A stretch of 64,000 bases of DNA from an uncultured Clostridia bacterium (GCA_945876745.1 CAMCPL010000008.1:8757-72756); one strand, 5' to 3'. Positions 17,818 to 22,970 are shown, counted from the stretch's first letter. Numbers and translations: made by a program. Notes: generated from the sequence alone by a model not told the origin.

Positions 17818-18669
17818 ATGAAAAATTTAGGCTACTACAACGGAAAGTATGATGAAATCGAGAAAATGCAAATTCCGATGACCGACCGTGTTTGTTGGTT
17901 TGGAGACGGTATTTACGACGCAACGTATTCTCATAATCATAAAATATTCGATCTTGACGCTCATATTACAAGATTTTTCAACAGCGCAAAAATTCTTGAT
18001 ATTGAAATGCCTATCGAAAGAAGCGAGCTTGAAGCCTTACTCAAGGAGCTTGTACTCAAGGTTGACGACGGCGACCAGTTCGTTTATATGCAGGTTACGA
18101 GAGGCTCGGGACTTCGAGGTCACAATTATTCAAAGGGCGACCAGCACAAGGCTAATCTTTGGATAACTCTCACTCCGTCTCCCGTTGCAGATACATACAA
18201 GCCTATTGATGTAATAACATATGAGGACAAGAGATTTTTGTACTGCAACTGCAAAACGCTCAACCTTATTCCGTCCTGTCTTGCCGCAACCGCCGCAGAC
18301 AGAGCAGGCTGTGAGGAAGCGATTTTCCACAGAGGCGATATAGTAACGGAATGTGCTCATTCCAATGTTTCGATTTTCAAGGACGGCAAGGTTATCACTC
18401 ACCCGCTTGACGACAAAATTCTCCCCGGTACTGCAAGATTAAGACTTTTAGCGTTTGCAAAAAAGCTGGGCTTCGGTGTTGAGGAAAGAGAATATACGCT
18501 TGATGAGCTTATGAACGCCGACGAGATTGTTGTTCATTCAACAGGCTCGTTCTGTATTCCGGTTAAGACGGTAGACGGCAAGGCAGTCGGCGGCAAGGCT
18601 CCCGAAATGCTTAAGACAATTCAGGACGCATTAGTTGCGGATTTCGAGGAGCAATGTAAGGCAGACTGA
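17818..18669 (+). CDS. dat: Class IV PLP aminotransferase, D-amino-acid aminotransferase-like
   Basis: DR...FGDGIYD; CKTLNL PLP lysine; ECAHSNV; ILPG..R; start revised to ATG 17818. Confidence 0.82.
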   Translation: MKNLGYYNGKYDEIEKMQIPMTDRVCWFGDGIYDATYSHNHKIFDLDAHITRFFNSAKILDIEMPIERSELEALLKELVLKVDDGDQFVYMQVTRGSGLRGHNYSKGDQHKANLWITLTPSPVADTYKPIDVITYEDKRFLYCNCKTLNLIPSCLAATAADRAGCEEAIFHRGDIVTECAHSNVSIFKDGKVITHPLDDKILPGTARLRLLAFAKKLGFGVEEREYTLDELMNADEIVVHSTGSFCIPVKTVDGKAVGGKAPEMLKTIQDALVADFEEQCKAD

Positions 18670-18693
18670 CGCTTTTGTGATAAAGGGGAAAAT

Positions 18694-19752
18694 ATGAATA
18701 AAAAGGAATTAACGCTTCTTAATATAGGCGACGACTTGGATTCGCTGATGAATTTGGATCCGAGGGGTTACGGCGTTTGCCGTATTCTCTATGACGGTGC
18801 GAGAAGATTTACAGGCGAGCCGCTTTGCGTGAACGGTGCAAAGGGACTTGTCAATAATATAAAAAAGGGCGAAAAGGTATTTATTTTGACAGGCTTCGTG
18901 CTTCTTCCGTGGAATGAAGCGGAAACCGACGGTATTATTTCGTCTGCAATTTTTGCAAGATTTTTGATAAACGCCTTCGGCGCAAAGCCGGTTATGATTG
19001 TGCCCGAGCAATGCACAAAGGCAATAATTTCTATGAGCAGGGTGCTTGATTTTGAGGTAACGACGGATATCGACAATATTCCCGACGGTGCAGTTTGCAT
19101 TGTTGAGTATACAAAATCAAAGGACGAGGAAGAAAATCAGGCTGACGAAATTCTTTCTCACGGACTGCCCTGCGCAATAATTTCAAACGAAGCTCCGGGC
19201 AGAAACAAGAACGGCTATTATCACAACGCCGTCGGTGTAAATACAACCGATTACGAAGCAAAGTATGACGTTTTGTTTAAGAAATGCCAAAAGCTCGGAA
19301 TATACAATCTTTCTATCGGCGACCTTGGAAACGAGATAGGTATGGCGGCGATAGAGGAGCATATTCGCAAATACATTCCGTATGCCGAGGAGGGCGGCTG
19401 TAAGGCTGGCACAGGCTTCGGTATTCTGTCCGACACCGCCGCAGATAATATTATTACAGCGACCTGCTCGGATTGGGGTTGTAGTGCTCTTATGGCGGCA
19501 ACCGCATTTTTGCTCGGCGACACGTCGTTGTTCCACAGTATAGAGGATCAGGCTTCGGCAATGGACGCAGCCGCAGGCGCAGGTATGCTTGATATGTACG
19601 GCAAGGCTCGTCCGTATATTGACGGAATAGGTAAAAATATCAATCTGCCTTTGATTGCCATGATGAAATCAATTATAGAATATCCGTCAACCGTTGAGGA
19701 CAAAACGGCTGAATGGTTCAGCAGAACGATAGATAAAGGATTTTTTGAGTAA
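18694..19752 (+). CDS. DUF4392 / D-glutamate cyclase C-terminal-like protein
   Basis: ETDG motif; IGDLGNEIGM; SDWG. Confidence 0.8.
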   Translation: MNKKELTLLNIGDDLDSLMNLDPRGYGVCRILYDGARRFTGEPLCVNGAKGLVNNIKKGEKVFILTGFVLLPWNEAETDGIISSAIFARFLINAFGAKPVMIVPEQCTKAIISMSRVLDFEVTTDIDNIPDGAVCIVEYTKSKDEEENQADEILSHGLPCAIISNEAPGRNKNGYYHNAVGVNTTDYEAKYDVLFKKCQKLGIYNLSIGDLGNEIGMAAIEEHIRKYIPYAEEGGCKAGTGFGILSDTAADNIITATCSDWGCSALMAATAFLLGDTSLFHSIEDQASAMDAAAGAGMLDMYGKARPYIDGIGKNINLPLIAMMKSIIEYPSTVEDKTAEWFSRTIDKGFFE

Positions 19753-20477
19753 TGGAGTATTCTTTTCTGCCATGCGGCGATTCGGCAGTTACCGTATTGT
19801 TCAAAAAGGAAATCAGCAAAGAAAATAACGCCCTTGTGACCTCGCTTGACCGACTTGTTATCGACAGGAAAATCAAGGGCGTAACGGAAACCGTGAGTGC
19901 TTTTTCGAGCCTGACGGTGTTTTACGACTGCACCGTAATTTCGTTTGATAGGCTGACGAAAAAACTTTCAAAATTAATAAAGAAAATAAGAGTTGAGAGT
20001 GAACGAAGAGTCAGAGTGTGGGATATTCCCGTTTGCTACGAGGGTGAGCTTTCGCCCGATATGGATAACGTTTGCGCTCATACGGGGCTTACGAGAGACG
20101 AGGTTATTACGCTTCACACCTCGAAGCCGTATCTAATTTATATGCTCGGTTTTTTGCCGGGCTTTGCGTATTTGGGCGGTATGGACGAAAGGCTGTTCAC
20201 TCCGAGACTGAAAACACCGAGGCTTGAAATTTTTGAGGGCGCAGTAGGTATCGGCGGCGAGCAGACGGGAATATACCCTATGGCTTCGCCAGGCGGCTGG
20301 CAGTTAATCGGCAAGACGCCCGTCAAGGTTTACGACAAATCGAAAAGTGAGCCGATTTTGTACAAGGCAGGAGATTATATTCAATTTTTCAGCGTTGATT
20401 ACGACGCCTTTTGCGATATTCAACGCAGGGTTGAAAGCGGCGAATACACGCCCGAATTTAGGGAGGTGACGCTGTGA
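19752..20477 (+). CDS. pxpB: 5-oxoprolinase subunit B
   Basis: GDSA; IPVCY.GE..PD; YMLGFLPGFAYLGG; SPGGWQLIGKTP. Confidence 0.92.
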   Translation: MEYSFLPCGDSAVTVLFKKEISKENNALVTSLDRLVIDRKIKGVTETVSAFSSLTVFYDCTVISFDRLTKKLSKLIKKIRVESERRVRVWDIPVCYEGELSPDMDNVCAHTGLTRDEVITLHTSKPYLIYMLGFLPGFAYLGGMDERLFTPRLKTPRLEIFEGAVGIGGEQTGIYPMASPGGWQLIGKTPVKVYDKSKSEPILYKAGDYIQFFSVDYDAFCDIQRRVESGEYTPEFREVTL

Positions 20478-21391: not shown

Positions 21392-22173
21392 ATTATGCAA
21401 ATATGAAGCCGCAACAGGTTAAGGATTTAATCAGAAGCGGCAAGATAGATTATCAAACGTCGGGAATGTGCAACGGCTATGCACAGGCAAATCTTTGTAT
21501 TTTGCCAAAGGAATATGCATTCGATTTTTTGCTTTTCTGTATGCGAAATCCAAAGCCCTGCCCGATTTTAGAGGTCGGCGACGTCGGCTCAAAGGAAATA
21601 AAAACAATGGCGCAGTACGGCGACATTTGCACCGATTTTCCGAAATACAGAATTTGGAAAAACGGCGTGCTTGAAAAAGAGGTAACCGATATCAGCGAAT
21701 ACTGGCAGGACGATTTTGTGTACTTTCTTATAGGATGCTCGTTCAGCTTTGAAAGCGAGCTACTTGAGGCTGATGTACCGGTGAGACATATTGAAGAAAA
21801 CAGAAATGTGCCGATGTTTAATACAAATATTGCGCTTGAGCCTGCAGGAAAATTCCACGGAAATATGGTTGTTTCAATGCGACCGATACCTGACGACTTG
21901 GTTGTAAAGGCGGTGAACGTTACCGCCGCAATGCCGAGAGTTCACGGTGCGCCTGTTCATATCGGCAACCCAAGGGCTATCGGAATTGAAGATGTAAATT
22001 GTCCCGACTACGGCGATAGCGTAACTATTAACGAGGGCGAGACCCCTGTGTTTTGGGCGTGCGGCGTTACTCCGCAAAATGCCGTTATGCAGACAAAGCC
22101 GCCGATTGCAATTACTCATTCACCGGGACATATGTTTATTACCGACGTTAAGAACGTCAGCCTTAAATATTGA
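21388..22173 (+). CDS. DUF1445 putative hydro-lyase (D-glutamate cyclase N-terminal family)
   Basis: TSGM..GY.QANL.ILP; NPKPCP; GCSFSFE; PVFWACGVTPQ; THSPGHMFITD. Confidence 0.88.
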   Translation: MNYANMKPQQVKDLIRSGKIDYQTSGMCNGYAQANLCILPKEYAFDFLLFCMRNPKPCPILEVGDVGSKEIKTMAQYGDICTDFPKYRIWKNGVLEKEVTDISEYWQDDFVYFLIGCSFSFESELLEADVPVRHIEENRNVPMFNTNIALEPAGKFHGNMVVSMRPIPDDLVVKAVNVTAAMPRVHGAPVHIGNPRAIGIEDVNCPDYGDSVTINEGETPVFWACGVTPQNAVMQTKPPIAITHSPGHMFITDVKNVSLKY

Positions 22174-22199
22174 AAATGGATTATGAAAGGTCGGAAAAT

Positions 22200-22970
22200 A
22201 TGACAGCGTCTGATTATTTTGCTATTTATAAAATTGATTTGAATTGTGATTTAGGCGAGGGTGCGGCTCTTGACAGCGAGATTATTCCACTTATTTCAAG
22301 TGCTAATATCGCCTGCGGCTTTCATGCAGGAAATTGCTCGCTTATGCATAAAACTGTGGAGATGTGTGCAAAAAACGGCGTTGCACTCGGCGCTCACCCC
22401 GGCTATCCCGATCGTGAGAATTTCGGCAGGACGGCTATGGATTGCACAGATGAGCAGATTTACGACTATATGATGTATCAGCTCGGCGCGCTTTCGGCGT
22501 TTGCTTCGGCGCAGGGCGTCAGTCTGCAACACGTAAAGCCCCACGGTGCTTTGTACAATACGGCAGGAAAGAACATTGAAGTCGCAAGGGCGGTTGTCAG
22601 AGCTGTTCGTGATTTCGATTCCTCGCTTATTTTGCTTGCGCTTTCGGGTTCAAAAATGATTGAAGCCGCCGAGGAATACGGCGTTAAATATGCCTGTGAG
22701 GTCTTTGCCGACAGAGCGTATGAGGCAGACGGCTCACTTCGTCAAAGAGGTCTTGAGGGCGCAATGATAACTGACGAAAATGAGGCTATCGAGCGTGTTG
22801 TACGAATGGTAAAAGAGGGCAAGGTTAAGGCTTATACAGGCGAGGATATCGTTGTCAGAGCCGACAGCGTTTGCGTTCACGGCGACGGTCAAAAGGCGCT
22901 CGATTTCGTAAAGGCGCTTAACGAGGCGTTCGTAGAAAACAAAATCAAGATTATGCCGCTTGGAAAATGA
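22200..22970 (+). CDS. pxpA: 5-oxoprolinase subunit A (LamB/YcsF)
   Basis: DLNCDLGE; ANIACGFHAG; GAHPGYPD..FGR; HVKPHGALYN; CVHGD; exact start uncertain. Confidence 0.92.
   Translation: MTASDYFAIYKIDLNCDLGEGAALDSEIIPLISSANIACGFHAGNCSLMHKTVEMCAKNGVALGAHPGYPDRENFGRTAMDCTDEQIYDYMMYQLGALSAFASAQGVSLQHVKPHGALYNTAGKNIEVARAVVRAVRDFDSSLILLALSGSKMIEAAEEYGVKYACEVFADRAYEADGSLRQRGLEGAMITDENEAIERVVRMVKEGKVKAYTGEDIVVRADSVCVHGDGQKALDFVKALNEAFVENKIKIMPLGK

Follow-up and report, generated by a model that had tools for sequence, protein, structure and literature searches.

The six genes at positions 17818-22970 of the window (the whole stretch of 64,000 nucleotides that was analysed) most probably form one functional module for D-glutamate (D-Glu) and 5-oxoproline, to which we would give a probability of approximately 0.8. 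They encode, all on the + strand and in this order, a D-amino-acid transaminase (Dat), a DUF4392 protein, PxpB, PxpC, a DUF1445 protein and PxpA. This is a pxp operon variant with a new gene set. A single module is supported by the gene order, which is kept in approximately 40 species, and by the overlaps of the translational-coupling type between its genes. From the gene content we infer that it is linked to the pool of cell-wall D-amino acids, which is the reading favoured here. No paper on the bacterial DUF1445 and DUF4392 proteins of such an operon was found in the literature search.

Layout and boundaries of the operon

The gene identities and coordinates given in the original prediction were all recovered on the + strand by profile matches (Table 1). 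Its view of the genes as an operon also held, given the close spacing, the overlaps of 1-4 nt and the conserved order. The gap between dat and the DUF4392 gene is 24 nt, and the last five genes overlap by 1, 4, 4 and 4 nt in succession. If translation of pxpA begins at ATG 22200, a short gap replaces the final overlap; this start codon is preceded by GAAAGG and, on the sequence, is likely to be the true start (rather than 22170).

The 5' boundary is marked by a hairpin with a T-run at the end of the upstream gene, which was recognised by eye and is missing from the automatic terminator scan because its loop is long. The leader of approximately 85 nt before dat contained no Rfam element. On the 3' side, three genes preceding a strong terminator may be co-transcribed with the six-gene block. 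They lie outside the conserved unit; they were not seen beside the block in relatives and fill the slot that is held by alr, after pxpA, in those relatives. The six-gene operon contains no transporter gene and so gives no sign of an outside supply of 5-oxo-D-proline.

Table 1. Features of the operon and its flanks in the window
Feature	Position	Strand	Basis
Hairpin and T-run at the end of the Na/Pi-cotransporter-PhoU gene, 5' operon boundary	17602..17652	+	By eye: AAAGCAGCTCCC ... GGGAGCTGCTTT then TGCTTTTT
Sigma-70-like promoter match 5' of dat, TTTACA-17-TAAAAT, extended TG	17703..17731	+	Consensus match only
dat, class IV (D-amino-acid) transaminase, 283 aa	17818..18669	+	PF01063 148 bits; TIGR01121 209 bits
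DUF4392 / GLUCM-like_C, 352 aa, long-form clade, TON_0340-type di-metal enzyme (predicted)	18694..19752	+	PF14336 289 bits
pxpB, 5-oxoprolinase subunit B	19752..20477	+	PF02682 240 bits; TIGR00370 211 bits (cut-off 146)
pxpC, 5-oxoprolinase subunit C	20474..21391	+	PF02626 305 bits; TIGR00724 309 bits (cut-off 230)
DUF1445 / D-Glu_cyclase "putative hydro-lyase" (YcsI/PxpI type), 261 aa	21388..22173	+	PF07286 233 bits; NF003969 421 bits (cut-off 324)
pxpA, 5-oxoprolinase subunit A (LamB/YcsF)	22170..22970	+	PF03746 320 bits; NF003814 328 bits (cut-off 226)
Three 3' genes (297-aa protein with a weak PI-PLC-X match, MBL-fold hydrolase, PfkB kinase) and strong terminator (25478-25509)	22994..25509	+	

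The encoded proteins and their known relatives

PxpA, PxpB and PxpC each pass a curated family cut-off, PxpC scoring 258 bits against the 500-bit cut-off of the strict equivalog NF045499. The pxpB and pxpC genes overlap by 4 nt and only the DUF1445 gene separates pxpC from pxpA. PxpABC is predicted to be an ATP-dependent 5-oxoprolinase which converts 5-oxo-L-proline to L-Glu; pxpB is single-copy and the source genome has no 5-oxoprolinase besides PxpABC.

Judged by their profile matches, the DUF1445 and DUF4392 proteins are homologues of the two halves of D-glutamate cyclase of animals, the mammalian mitochondrial enzyme DGLUCY (C14orf159, 9030617O03Rik; EC 4.2.1.48)(PMC5339696). The mouse two-domain enzyme converts D-Glu only to 5-oxo-D-proline, which was chirally separated from the L form, and does not need ATP (PMC5339696). 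Both of its domains (PF07286 and PF14336) are present here, but on two separate proteins, rather than on a single polypeptide with DUF1445 N-terminal and DUF4392 C-terminal; the two genes are 1.6 kb apart, with pxpB and pxpC between them. One-chain fusions of both domains do exist in bacteria, in the reverse domain order, and the bacterial proteins are nearly always tied to an ATP-dependent oxoprolinase, whereas the mitochondrial enzyme is not. The original prediction of both cyclase halves was therefore right as to the domains and has to be changed in one respect: the DUF4392 protein of the window falls, in the tree, in a long-form clade, apart from the short form which usually adjoins DUF1445. 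Both forms are present in Dat-containing clusters. Long-clade DUF4392 genes are also found, without DUF1445, beside genes for gamma-glutamyltranspeptidase, M24 peptidase and TRAP/TAXI transporters.

The DUF4392 protein resembles TON_0340 of Thermococcus onnurineus (PDB 4DWZ, 4FC5, 5GL2; PMC5132392) in fold and in its predicted di-metal site, all six acidic ligands being kept (E77, D79, E166, D210, E214 and D310, corresponding to E59, D61, E115, D157, E161 and D246 of TON_0340), although it is approximately 85 residues longer with approximately 22% identity. TON_0340 was the only structural match of its AF2 model (pLDDT 77; Foldseek TM 0.79, E 4e-14). The only activity assigned to TON_0340 is a weak, Mn2+-dependent AMP phosphatase (kcat/KM 190 M-1 s-1), it has a small, invariant cavity, and its authors found no DUF1445 homologues in the archaeal host (PMC5132392). 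An Asp/Glu/hydantoin racemase function for DUF4392, which has been suggested (PMC5339696), was not supported, as there was no Pfam match except PF14336 and the structural neighbours were TON_0340 only. The DUF1445 protein has solved relatives (2PIF and 3DB9, E 1e-88), its AF2 model has a pLDDT of 38, and its invariant residues include C58, C117, E122, R133, R165, H186, C225 and H244.

Dat is, by its residues, a canonical D-amino-acid transaminase. Its closest solved relatives are the Bacillus D-amino-acid transaminases (E 3e-43), and alignment to 1DAA/3LQS showed Y33, R100, H102, K146, E178 and L202 at the positions of Bacillus Y31, R98, H100, K145, E177 and L201. It therefore has the class IV fold of the Bacillus sp. 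YM-1 enzyme, with every canonical residue for substrate and cofactor, but differs from it in scoring below the 277-bit equivalog cut-off of TIGR01121, and in sitting with oxoprolinase and cyclase-like genes. TIGR01121 is nevertheless its best-scoring NCBIfam model, branched-chain models giving at most 135 bits.

Conservation and linkage

We compared 45 loci drawn from different species within the E. coprostanoligenes group, and approximately 40 of them carry these six genes in an unchanged order, the remaining loci being truncated contigs, so the arrangement is far beyond chance. Dat, which the original prediction had named as the gene whose absence would count against it, is present in all 45 of these close loci, and no other gene of the block is as highly conserved (81-95% identity across relatives). 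In a wider scan over several phyla, 18 of 24 complete clusters contained it, and incomplete clusters hardly ever did. An alanine racemase gene (alr) is the seventh gene, after pxpA, in 33 of 38 relatives, and is the sole strong alanine racemase of those genomes; the source genome encodes Alr and MurI elsewhere than in the operon, and MurI was not found in many relatives. Since Alr is in the operon of most relatives and both Alr and MurI are encoded elsewhere in the source genome, Dat seems to belong with the cell-wall D-Ala/D-Glu pool and not with the D-amino-acid scavenging that had been proposed.

Among 401 genomes of the phylum (raw genome counts, with kinship ignored), 67 of the 68 with DUF1445 also had PxpA, and DUF1445 was present in 38 of the 52 genomes with DUF4392 compared to 30 of the 349 without it. 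Within 5 kb of DUF1445 there was PxpA in 47 genomes, DUF4392 in 25, both in 6 and neither in 2, so that 66 of the 68 have one or the other as a neighbour. Many DUF1445-DUF4392 pairs are far from the pxp genes, yet in genomes which carry them.

Gene fusions join the same partners. DUF4392-DUF1445 fusion proteins of 545-640 aa are numerous, some with a MurD-like N and middle domain inserted, and there are PxpC-DUF1445 (P0276, P0281 and the L116 gene) and DUF1445-PxpB (P0353 and P0385) fusions. Some DUF4392-DUF1445 fusions, with or without the MurD-like insert, also lie directly 3' of an OPLAH-type 5-oxoprolinase (Hydantoinase_A/B) with a 4-nt overlap, a non-homologous displacement in which an unrelated oxoprolinase takes the place of PxpABC. 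The genome counts, the neighbourhoods and the fusions are all evidence that the cyclase-like proteins act together with a 5-oxoprolinase.

Compared with the pxp operons of E. coli (ybgJKL), B. subtilis (pxpA(ycsF)-ycsG-ycsI(pxpI)-kipI-kipA-kipR), C. difficile (kipOTIA) and C. glutamicum (pxpTABC), the window operon likewise has PxpA, PxpB and PxpC, all present and adjacent. As in B. subtilis, a DUF1445 gene (YcsI/PxpI) lies inside it (10.1101/2024.05.01.592088; PMC10448178); the role of DUF1445 was not explained in the pxp-operon literature that we found. The window operon differs from these operons in adding DUF4392 and Dat (and Alr in relatives) and in having neither an NRAMP/PxpT transporter nor a KipR/PxpR regulator.

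Proposed salvage of 5-oxoproline and competing explanations

In the salvage that we favour, the DUF1445 and DUF4392 proteins, the latter as a Mn2+/Mg2+ di-metal enzyme, would bind and interconvert D-Glu and 5-oxo-D-proline, and would partner the ATP-dependent oxoprolinase, by which the ring form would be forced open again to the amino acid. This lactam could arise spontaneously from D-Glu, or come from murein turnover or the gut, and PxpABC would perform the equivalent opening of 5-oxo-L-proline. The resulting D-Glu could enter murein, or Dat could use it together with pyruvate to form 2-oxoglutarate and D-Ala, the latter then being turned into L-Ala by Alr. Both 5-oxoproline enantiomers would be salvaged in this way, with no lactam racemase required. 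As Dat and Alr would together lead D-Glu all the way out to 2-oxoglutarate and L-Ala, every gene would have a role and no step would be missing.

The link to D-Glu is supported by the probable homology to the mouse cyclase, the MurD-like inserts, the presence of Dat in complete clusters and Alr as the seventh gene, and the full TON_0340 di-metal site predicted in DUF4392 would be in favour of salvage. Against salvage, the mouse enzyme, if it is a guide to the bacterial proteins, runs in the opposite way, from D-Glu to 5-oxo-D-proline and ATP-free (PMC5339696); the operon has no transporter, and many DUF1445-DUF4392 pairs are distant from pxp genes. The salvage direction and this division of labour are therefore put forward tentatively, at a little below even odds.

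Forward stereo-inversion, as in the original prediction, would have Dat producing D-Glu, DUF1445 and DUF4392 converting it to 5-oxo-D-proline, the lactam or an enzyme-bound phosphorylated form being epimerised, and a putatively L-specific PxpABC with ATP releasing L-Glu. The cyclase direction would then agree with the only known biochemistry, that of mouse DGLUCY (PMC5339696), and pairing with either type of L-5-oxoprolinase (PxpABC or OPLAH-type) would be natural if activity alone matters. The invariant C58, C117, C225, H186 and H244 of DUF1445 are candidate acid-base catalysts. There is also a precedent in the DgcN-DgcA pathway of marine bacteria, which, as cited in PMC10845958, acylates D-glutamate, racemises the N-acyl intermediate and deacylates it to L-glutamate. 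The shared logic would be an amine masked as an amide, racemised and unmasked; however, compared with that cited pathway, the operon proteins are unrelated, the amide would be an internal lactam and the unmasking would cost ATP. No racemase was identified among the operon proteins, the fold of DUF4392 matches only TON_0340 and is not racemase-like, and the mouse enzyme yields a single enantiomer (PMC5339696). The predicted catabolic direction, from D-amino acid through D-Glu and 5-oxo-D-proline to ring opening, would thus need an epimerase, or else be a futile ATPase cycle. Stereo-inversion also looks redundant because Alr, which relatives encode in the operon, and MurI of the source genome can already invert D-Ala and D-Glu ATP-free. 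We consider it rather unlikely. Its strongest form, in which DUF1445, DUF4392 and the oxoprolinase make up a cofactor-independent, ATP-driven machine that cyclises glutamate, epimerises the lactam or phosphorylated form on the enzyme and opens it irreversibly, is decidedly unlikely.

The genes could instead be co-regulated and uncoupled, with DUF1445 and DUF4392 acting as an overflow valve through which surplus D-Glu from Dat or MurI is excreted as 5-oxo-D-proline, while PxpABC only repairs 5-oxo-L-proline, including any cyclase product from the large L-Glu pool. This requires no novel chemistry, would account for an oxoprolinase of some type in nearly all DUF1445 genomes and agrees with the operon lacking an uptake transporter; moreover, PxpABC, being the only 5-oxoprolinase of the genome, must also do housekeeping repair. 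The fusions of DUF1445 to PxpC and PxpB and the interleaved, overlapping genes, however, indicate a physical or stoichiometric partnership and not loose co-regulation, and discarding costly D-Glu would be odd in an operon shared with a housekeeping Alr, making the valve improbable.

Equally improbable is a role away from D-Glu, with DUF4392 as a Mn2+-dependent phosphohydrolase of gamma-glutamyl phosphate or a phospho-lactim and DUF1445 as an additional, fourth subunit of the oxoprolinase, altering or broadening its range of lactam substrates: the phosphatase activity and cavity of TON_0340, the long-clade neighbourhoods without DUF1445 and the DUF1445 fusions to PxpB or PxpC agree with it, but that activity is very low, the repeated occurrence of Dat and Alr where the cluster is complete, together with the MurD-like inserts, indicates D-Glu specifically, and the mammalian fusion of these two domains is a D-Glu cyclase.

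Stereo-inversion, if true, would make the operon an irreversible, MurI-independent D-to-L glutamate converter, and the machine described above could remove D-Glu, or supply murein D-Glu without a glutamate racemase in relatives where MurI was not found. No account of the route in the original prediction was found in the literature searched, as that prediction had anticipated. The operon points to a putative route by which a gut Clostridium would deal with D-glutamate of the cell wall and with its cyclised form.

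Layout of the operon and its proteins

The original prediction, which read dat, DUF4392, pxpB, pxpC, DUF1445 and pxpA on one strand between 17818 and 22970, agreed in every detail with the gene calls and family matches. All six genes are single-copy in the 1.93-Mb genome of the window, and the last five are joined by 1-4-nt overlaps or separated by gaps of a few bases, a spacing that is the usual sign of translational coupling. An Rfam scan of the operon leader found no element.

Features of the operon and its surroundings (window positions)
Feature	Position	Strand	Remark
Hairpin and T-run	about 17602-17652	+	end of upstream Na/Pi-cotransporter-PhoU gene, 5' of block
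Promoter-like site	17703-17731	+	5' of dat
dat	17818-18669	+	283 aa
DUF4392 / GLUCM-like_C	18694-19752	+	352 aa
pxpB	19752-20477	+	5-oxoprolinase subunit B
pxpC	20474-21391	+	5-oxoprolinase subunit C
DUF1445 / D-Glu_cyclase family	21388-22173	+	261 aa
pxpA	22170 (ATG 22200 likelier) to stop at 22970	+	LamB/YcsF
Three further genes	22994-25472	+	run up to terminator
Strong terminator	25478-25509	+	14-bp stem, closes downstream gene set

The upstream gene (15846-17594) encodes a Na/Pi cotransporter (two PF02690 repeats) fused to two PhoU domains, and is not kept beside the operon in relatives. The first of the three downstream genes encodes a 297-aa protein whose sole family match, to PI-PLC-X, is weak (E 0.003) and of which two paralogue fragments exist elsewhere in the genome. 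Next come a gene for an MBL-fold hydrolase and one for a PfkB-family kinase, which has a 54%-identical paralogue on contig C6 of the same genome. These downstream genes were ruled out as pathway members because they are not conserved beside the block in relatives; across the 45 loci of the close-relative scan, no conservation of the flanking genes was found.

Dat could be aligned end to end with the D-amino-acid transaminases of Bacillus (E 3e-43) and retains the enzyme-defining residues Y31, R98, H100, K145, E177 and L201 as Y33, R100, H102, K146, E178 and L202; its score is below the NCBIfam equivalog cut-off. The six acidic residues that serve as ligands at the di-Mn2+/Mg2+ site of TON_0340, the only solved relative of DUF4392 (PMC5132392), are all present in the protein of the window, and its AF2 model (pLDDT 77) matched TON_0340 and nothing else. 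Therefore, the racemase homology suggested for the mouse domain (PMC5339696) is not borne out, and on this predicted fold a role of DUF4392 as a racemase was ruled out. DUF1445 is close to two structural-genomics proteins without assigned function (E 1e-88), and some of its Cys, His, Arg and Glu residues are invariant; its AF2 model, built from a shallow alignment, reached a pLDDT of 38.

Conservation in relatives and in other phyla

Taking one genome per species, the close-relative scan detected 45 loci, all in gut Clostridia of the Eubacterium coprostanoligenes / Fimenecus group, and the six genes were found in identical order at all loci that lie whole within their contig. Identity to the proteins of the window was 81-95% for Dat, 74-93% for DUF1445 and 46-78% for the Pxp subunits. 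In 33 of the 38 relatives with sequence beyond pxpA, a seventh gene, encoding the housekeeping alanine racemase (Alr), lies directly 3' of pxpA. Those genomes, among them that of the cultured E. coprostanoligenes ATCC 51222 with its seven-gene version, have no other high-scoring Alr. The alr gene is missing from this position in the genome of the window and its three nearest relatives. In the former, three unrelated genes occupy the old position and alr lies on another contig, immediately 5' of murI (C2:48448-50321); with MurI and Alr adjacent there, the presence of Dat for want of racemases was ruled out for this genome. At one locus, from an Anaerotruncus sp. MAG (CP091724.1), the operon is present with DUF4392, DUF1445 and Alr broken by stops or frame changes, which, in a long-read MAG, are more suggestive of assembly errors than of decay.

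A wider scan was seeded with the DUF1445 alignment, and a cluster was taken as complete when it held DUF4392, PxpBC and DUF1445. Dat was present in 18 of the 24 complete clusters and Alr additionally in 5, while two further loci, cut before DUF4392, had Alr after PxpA; Dat was missing from nearly all loci where the pxp genes or the DUF pair occurred alone. The conservation of dat in the cluster was thus upheld by both scans. The organism labels of the complete clusters span several phyla (Oscillospiraceae, Lachnospiraceae, Paenibacillaceae, Victivallis and a Thermoflexaceae MAG), although for MAGs such labels may not be trustworthy.

Two gene orders recur: that of the window, Dat-DUF4392-PxpB-PxpC-DUF1445-PxpA, with the long form of DUF4392, and Dat-PxpB-PxpC-DUF1445-PxpA-DUF4392, with a short-like form. 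In the DUF4392 tree, the protein of the window falls in the long-form clade. Elsewhere, genes of this clade adjoin those for gamma-glutamyltranspeptidase, a TRAP/TAXI transporter or a peptidase, and it is the short form that DUF1445 usually has beside it. As both forms have been recruited into Dat-containing clusters, they are probably interchangeable there. Long-form DUF4392 genes without DUF1445 were seen in three conserved contexts: with gamma-glutamyltranspeptidase, DUF6305, a DctM-like permease and an AstE/AspA-like hydrolase (loci L092, L101, L106); with a TAXI-TRAP transporter, GntR and malic enzyme (L095, L099, L102, L103); and with an FGGY kinase and a SelA-like PLP enzyme (L086, L104, L109). 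These contexts suggest a broader role, acting on small compounds of the glutamyl type.

Probable partnership of the cyclase-like proteins with 5-oxoprolinase

In a sample of 401 genomes drawn evenly from the phylum, DUF1445 was present in 68 (17%), DUF4392 in 52 (13%) and PxpA in 129. Counted without regard to shared ancestry, PxpA was found in 67 of the 68 DUF1445 genomes, and DUF1445 in 38 of the 52 genomes with DUF4392 compared with 30 of the 349 others. Among the 68, the distance from DUF1445 is no more than 5 kb to PxpA in 47 genomes and to DUF4392 in 25 (directly adjacent in 20); both partners are that close in 6, including the genome of the window, and neither is in only 2.

Fusion proteins tie the same partners together. 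Many DUF4392-DUF1445 fusions (545-640 aa) were found, with the domain order reversed relative to the mammalian enzyme, as were PxpC-DUF1445, DUF1445-PxpB and DUF4392-MurD-like(N+M domains)-DUF1445 fusions. At L116:5890-7608 (genome G030), a single 572-aa protein joins PxpC to DUF1445 and is encoded within a DUF4392-Dat-PxpB-[PxpC-DUF1445]-PxpA gene cluster; the protein cluster to which it belongs comprises 75 sequences of the collection. Such fusions would predict that PxpC and DUF1445 touch each other. Four proteins of 864-945 aa (P0350, P0378, P0388, P0389) consist of DUF4392, a MurD-like N domain, the ATP-binding Mur-ligase middle domain without the C-terminal domain, and DUF1445.

On two unrelated metagenome or NCBI contigs (L122:1522-7982, L127:3105-8635), a DUF4392(-MurD-like)-DUF1445 fusion gene lies directly 3' of, and overlaps by 4 nt, a gene for an OPLAH-type protein (1289-1299 aa; Hydant_A_N, Hydantoinase_A and Hydantoinase_B). 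This protein represents the second type of ATP-dependent 5-oxoprolinase, which is not homologous to PxpABC. The fusions and this displacement are independent kinds of evidence and agree with the genome counts. As the cyclase-like proteins are found with either of two unrelated enzymes, the functional partner would be the oxoprolinase activity itself; our concrete claim, drawn from gene neighbourhoods and fusions, is that they would work with ATP-dependent 5-oxoprolinase, whichever type is present.

A link to D-glutamate is supported by homology to the mouse cyclase, the MurD-like insertions, Dat and the multi-phylum clusters. MurD is the murein ligase that adds D-Glu. The product of the mouse enzyme has been chirally shown to be 5-oxo-D-proline (PMC5339696).

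Direction of the route and its meaning

A cyclase and a ring opener acting on one enantiomer would only burn ATP, so three ways out were considered. We favour, with a probability of roughly 0.4, a salvage direction in which the cyclase-type proteins could form the D-specific half of the ring-opening machinery or else carry out a reversible step pulled by D-Glu consumption. 5-Oxo-D-proline would be converted to D-Glu, which could enter murein or pass via Dat (and Alr) to 2-oxoglutarate and L-Ala, and the L form of 5-oxoproline would be handled by PxpABC. Salvage is favoured because it has no need for an unidentified racemase, makes Dat and Alr necessary as the outlet for D-Glu, is consistent with both the D-Glu-consuming MurD-like fusions and the PxpB/PxpC-DUF1445 fusions, and is thermodynamically sensible, the D-Glu pool being small and the L-Glu pool very large. 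However, the only known biochemistry, from mouse, is ATP-free and in the cyclising direction, and a mechanism that couples the cyclase-type proteins to ATP hydrolysis would have to be postulated.

The cyclising direction is also that of the original prediction, which ran from a D-amino acid through D-Glu to 5-oxo-D-proline and ring opening. Here D-Glu would be cyclised, the lactam epimerised and then opened by an L-specific oxoprolinase, giving an ATP-driven D-to-L inversion. This is less probable, as inversion of D-Ala and D-Glu is already available at no cost through Alr and MurI and racemisation is absent from the mouse two-domain enzyme. It is improbable that the cyclase and ring-opening activities are merely co-regulated, and equally so that the substrate is a different one altogether.

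A scarcity of MurI would fit a role of the DUF pair in D-Glu supply in place of MurI, which we regard as a lead only. Among 28 close relatives, most of them MAGs, a MurI above the family cut-off was detected in just 11-12; in one relative the contig stops right after alr, where murI would be. In the phylum sample, several DUF1445-bearing families had no MurI above cut-off, some also lacking Dat; these families carry other Asp_Glu_race proteins, and no clear enrichment was found at the level of families. Nine genomes (G048, G091, G168, G201, G286 and G338, of one family, and G040, G125 and G334) carry DUF1445, DUF4392 and PxpA without MurI above cut-off or a Dat-like transaminase; other Asp_Glu_race family proteins are present in them.

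The pxp operon of B. subtilis, like that of the window, holds a DUF1445 gene (ycsI/pxpI), whose function is unexplained there (10.1101/2024.05.01.592088; PMC10448178), and split homologues of human DGLUCY in gut bacteria have been reported only as a table count (PMC12547972). A literature search that covered both DUF families, D-glutamate cyclase and the lactam 5-oxo-D-proline turned up no work on the bacterial proteins. The operon type itself is therefore already known, and the version in the window is a new variant, not unique to this genome.

Two large families without known bacterial function, DUF1445 and DUF4392, which are widespread and occur in animals too, thereby gain a specific candidate role that can be tested. 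To our knowledge, all murein-bearing bacteria must manage D-glutamate, and we know of no account of the fate in bacteria of its ring form, 5-oxo-D-proline, which humans excrete daily. If the module supplies or removes D-Glu, it would bear on cell-wall precursor supply, on the exchange of D-amino acids between gut bacteria and their host, and on how PxpABC works.
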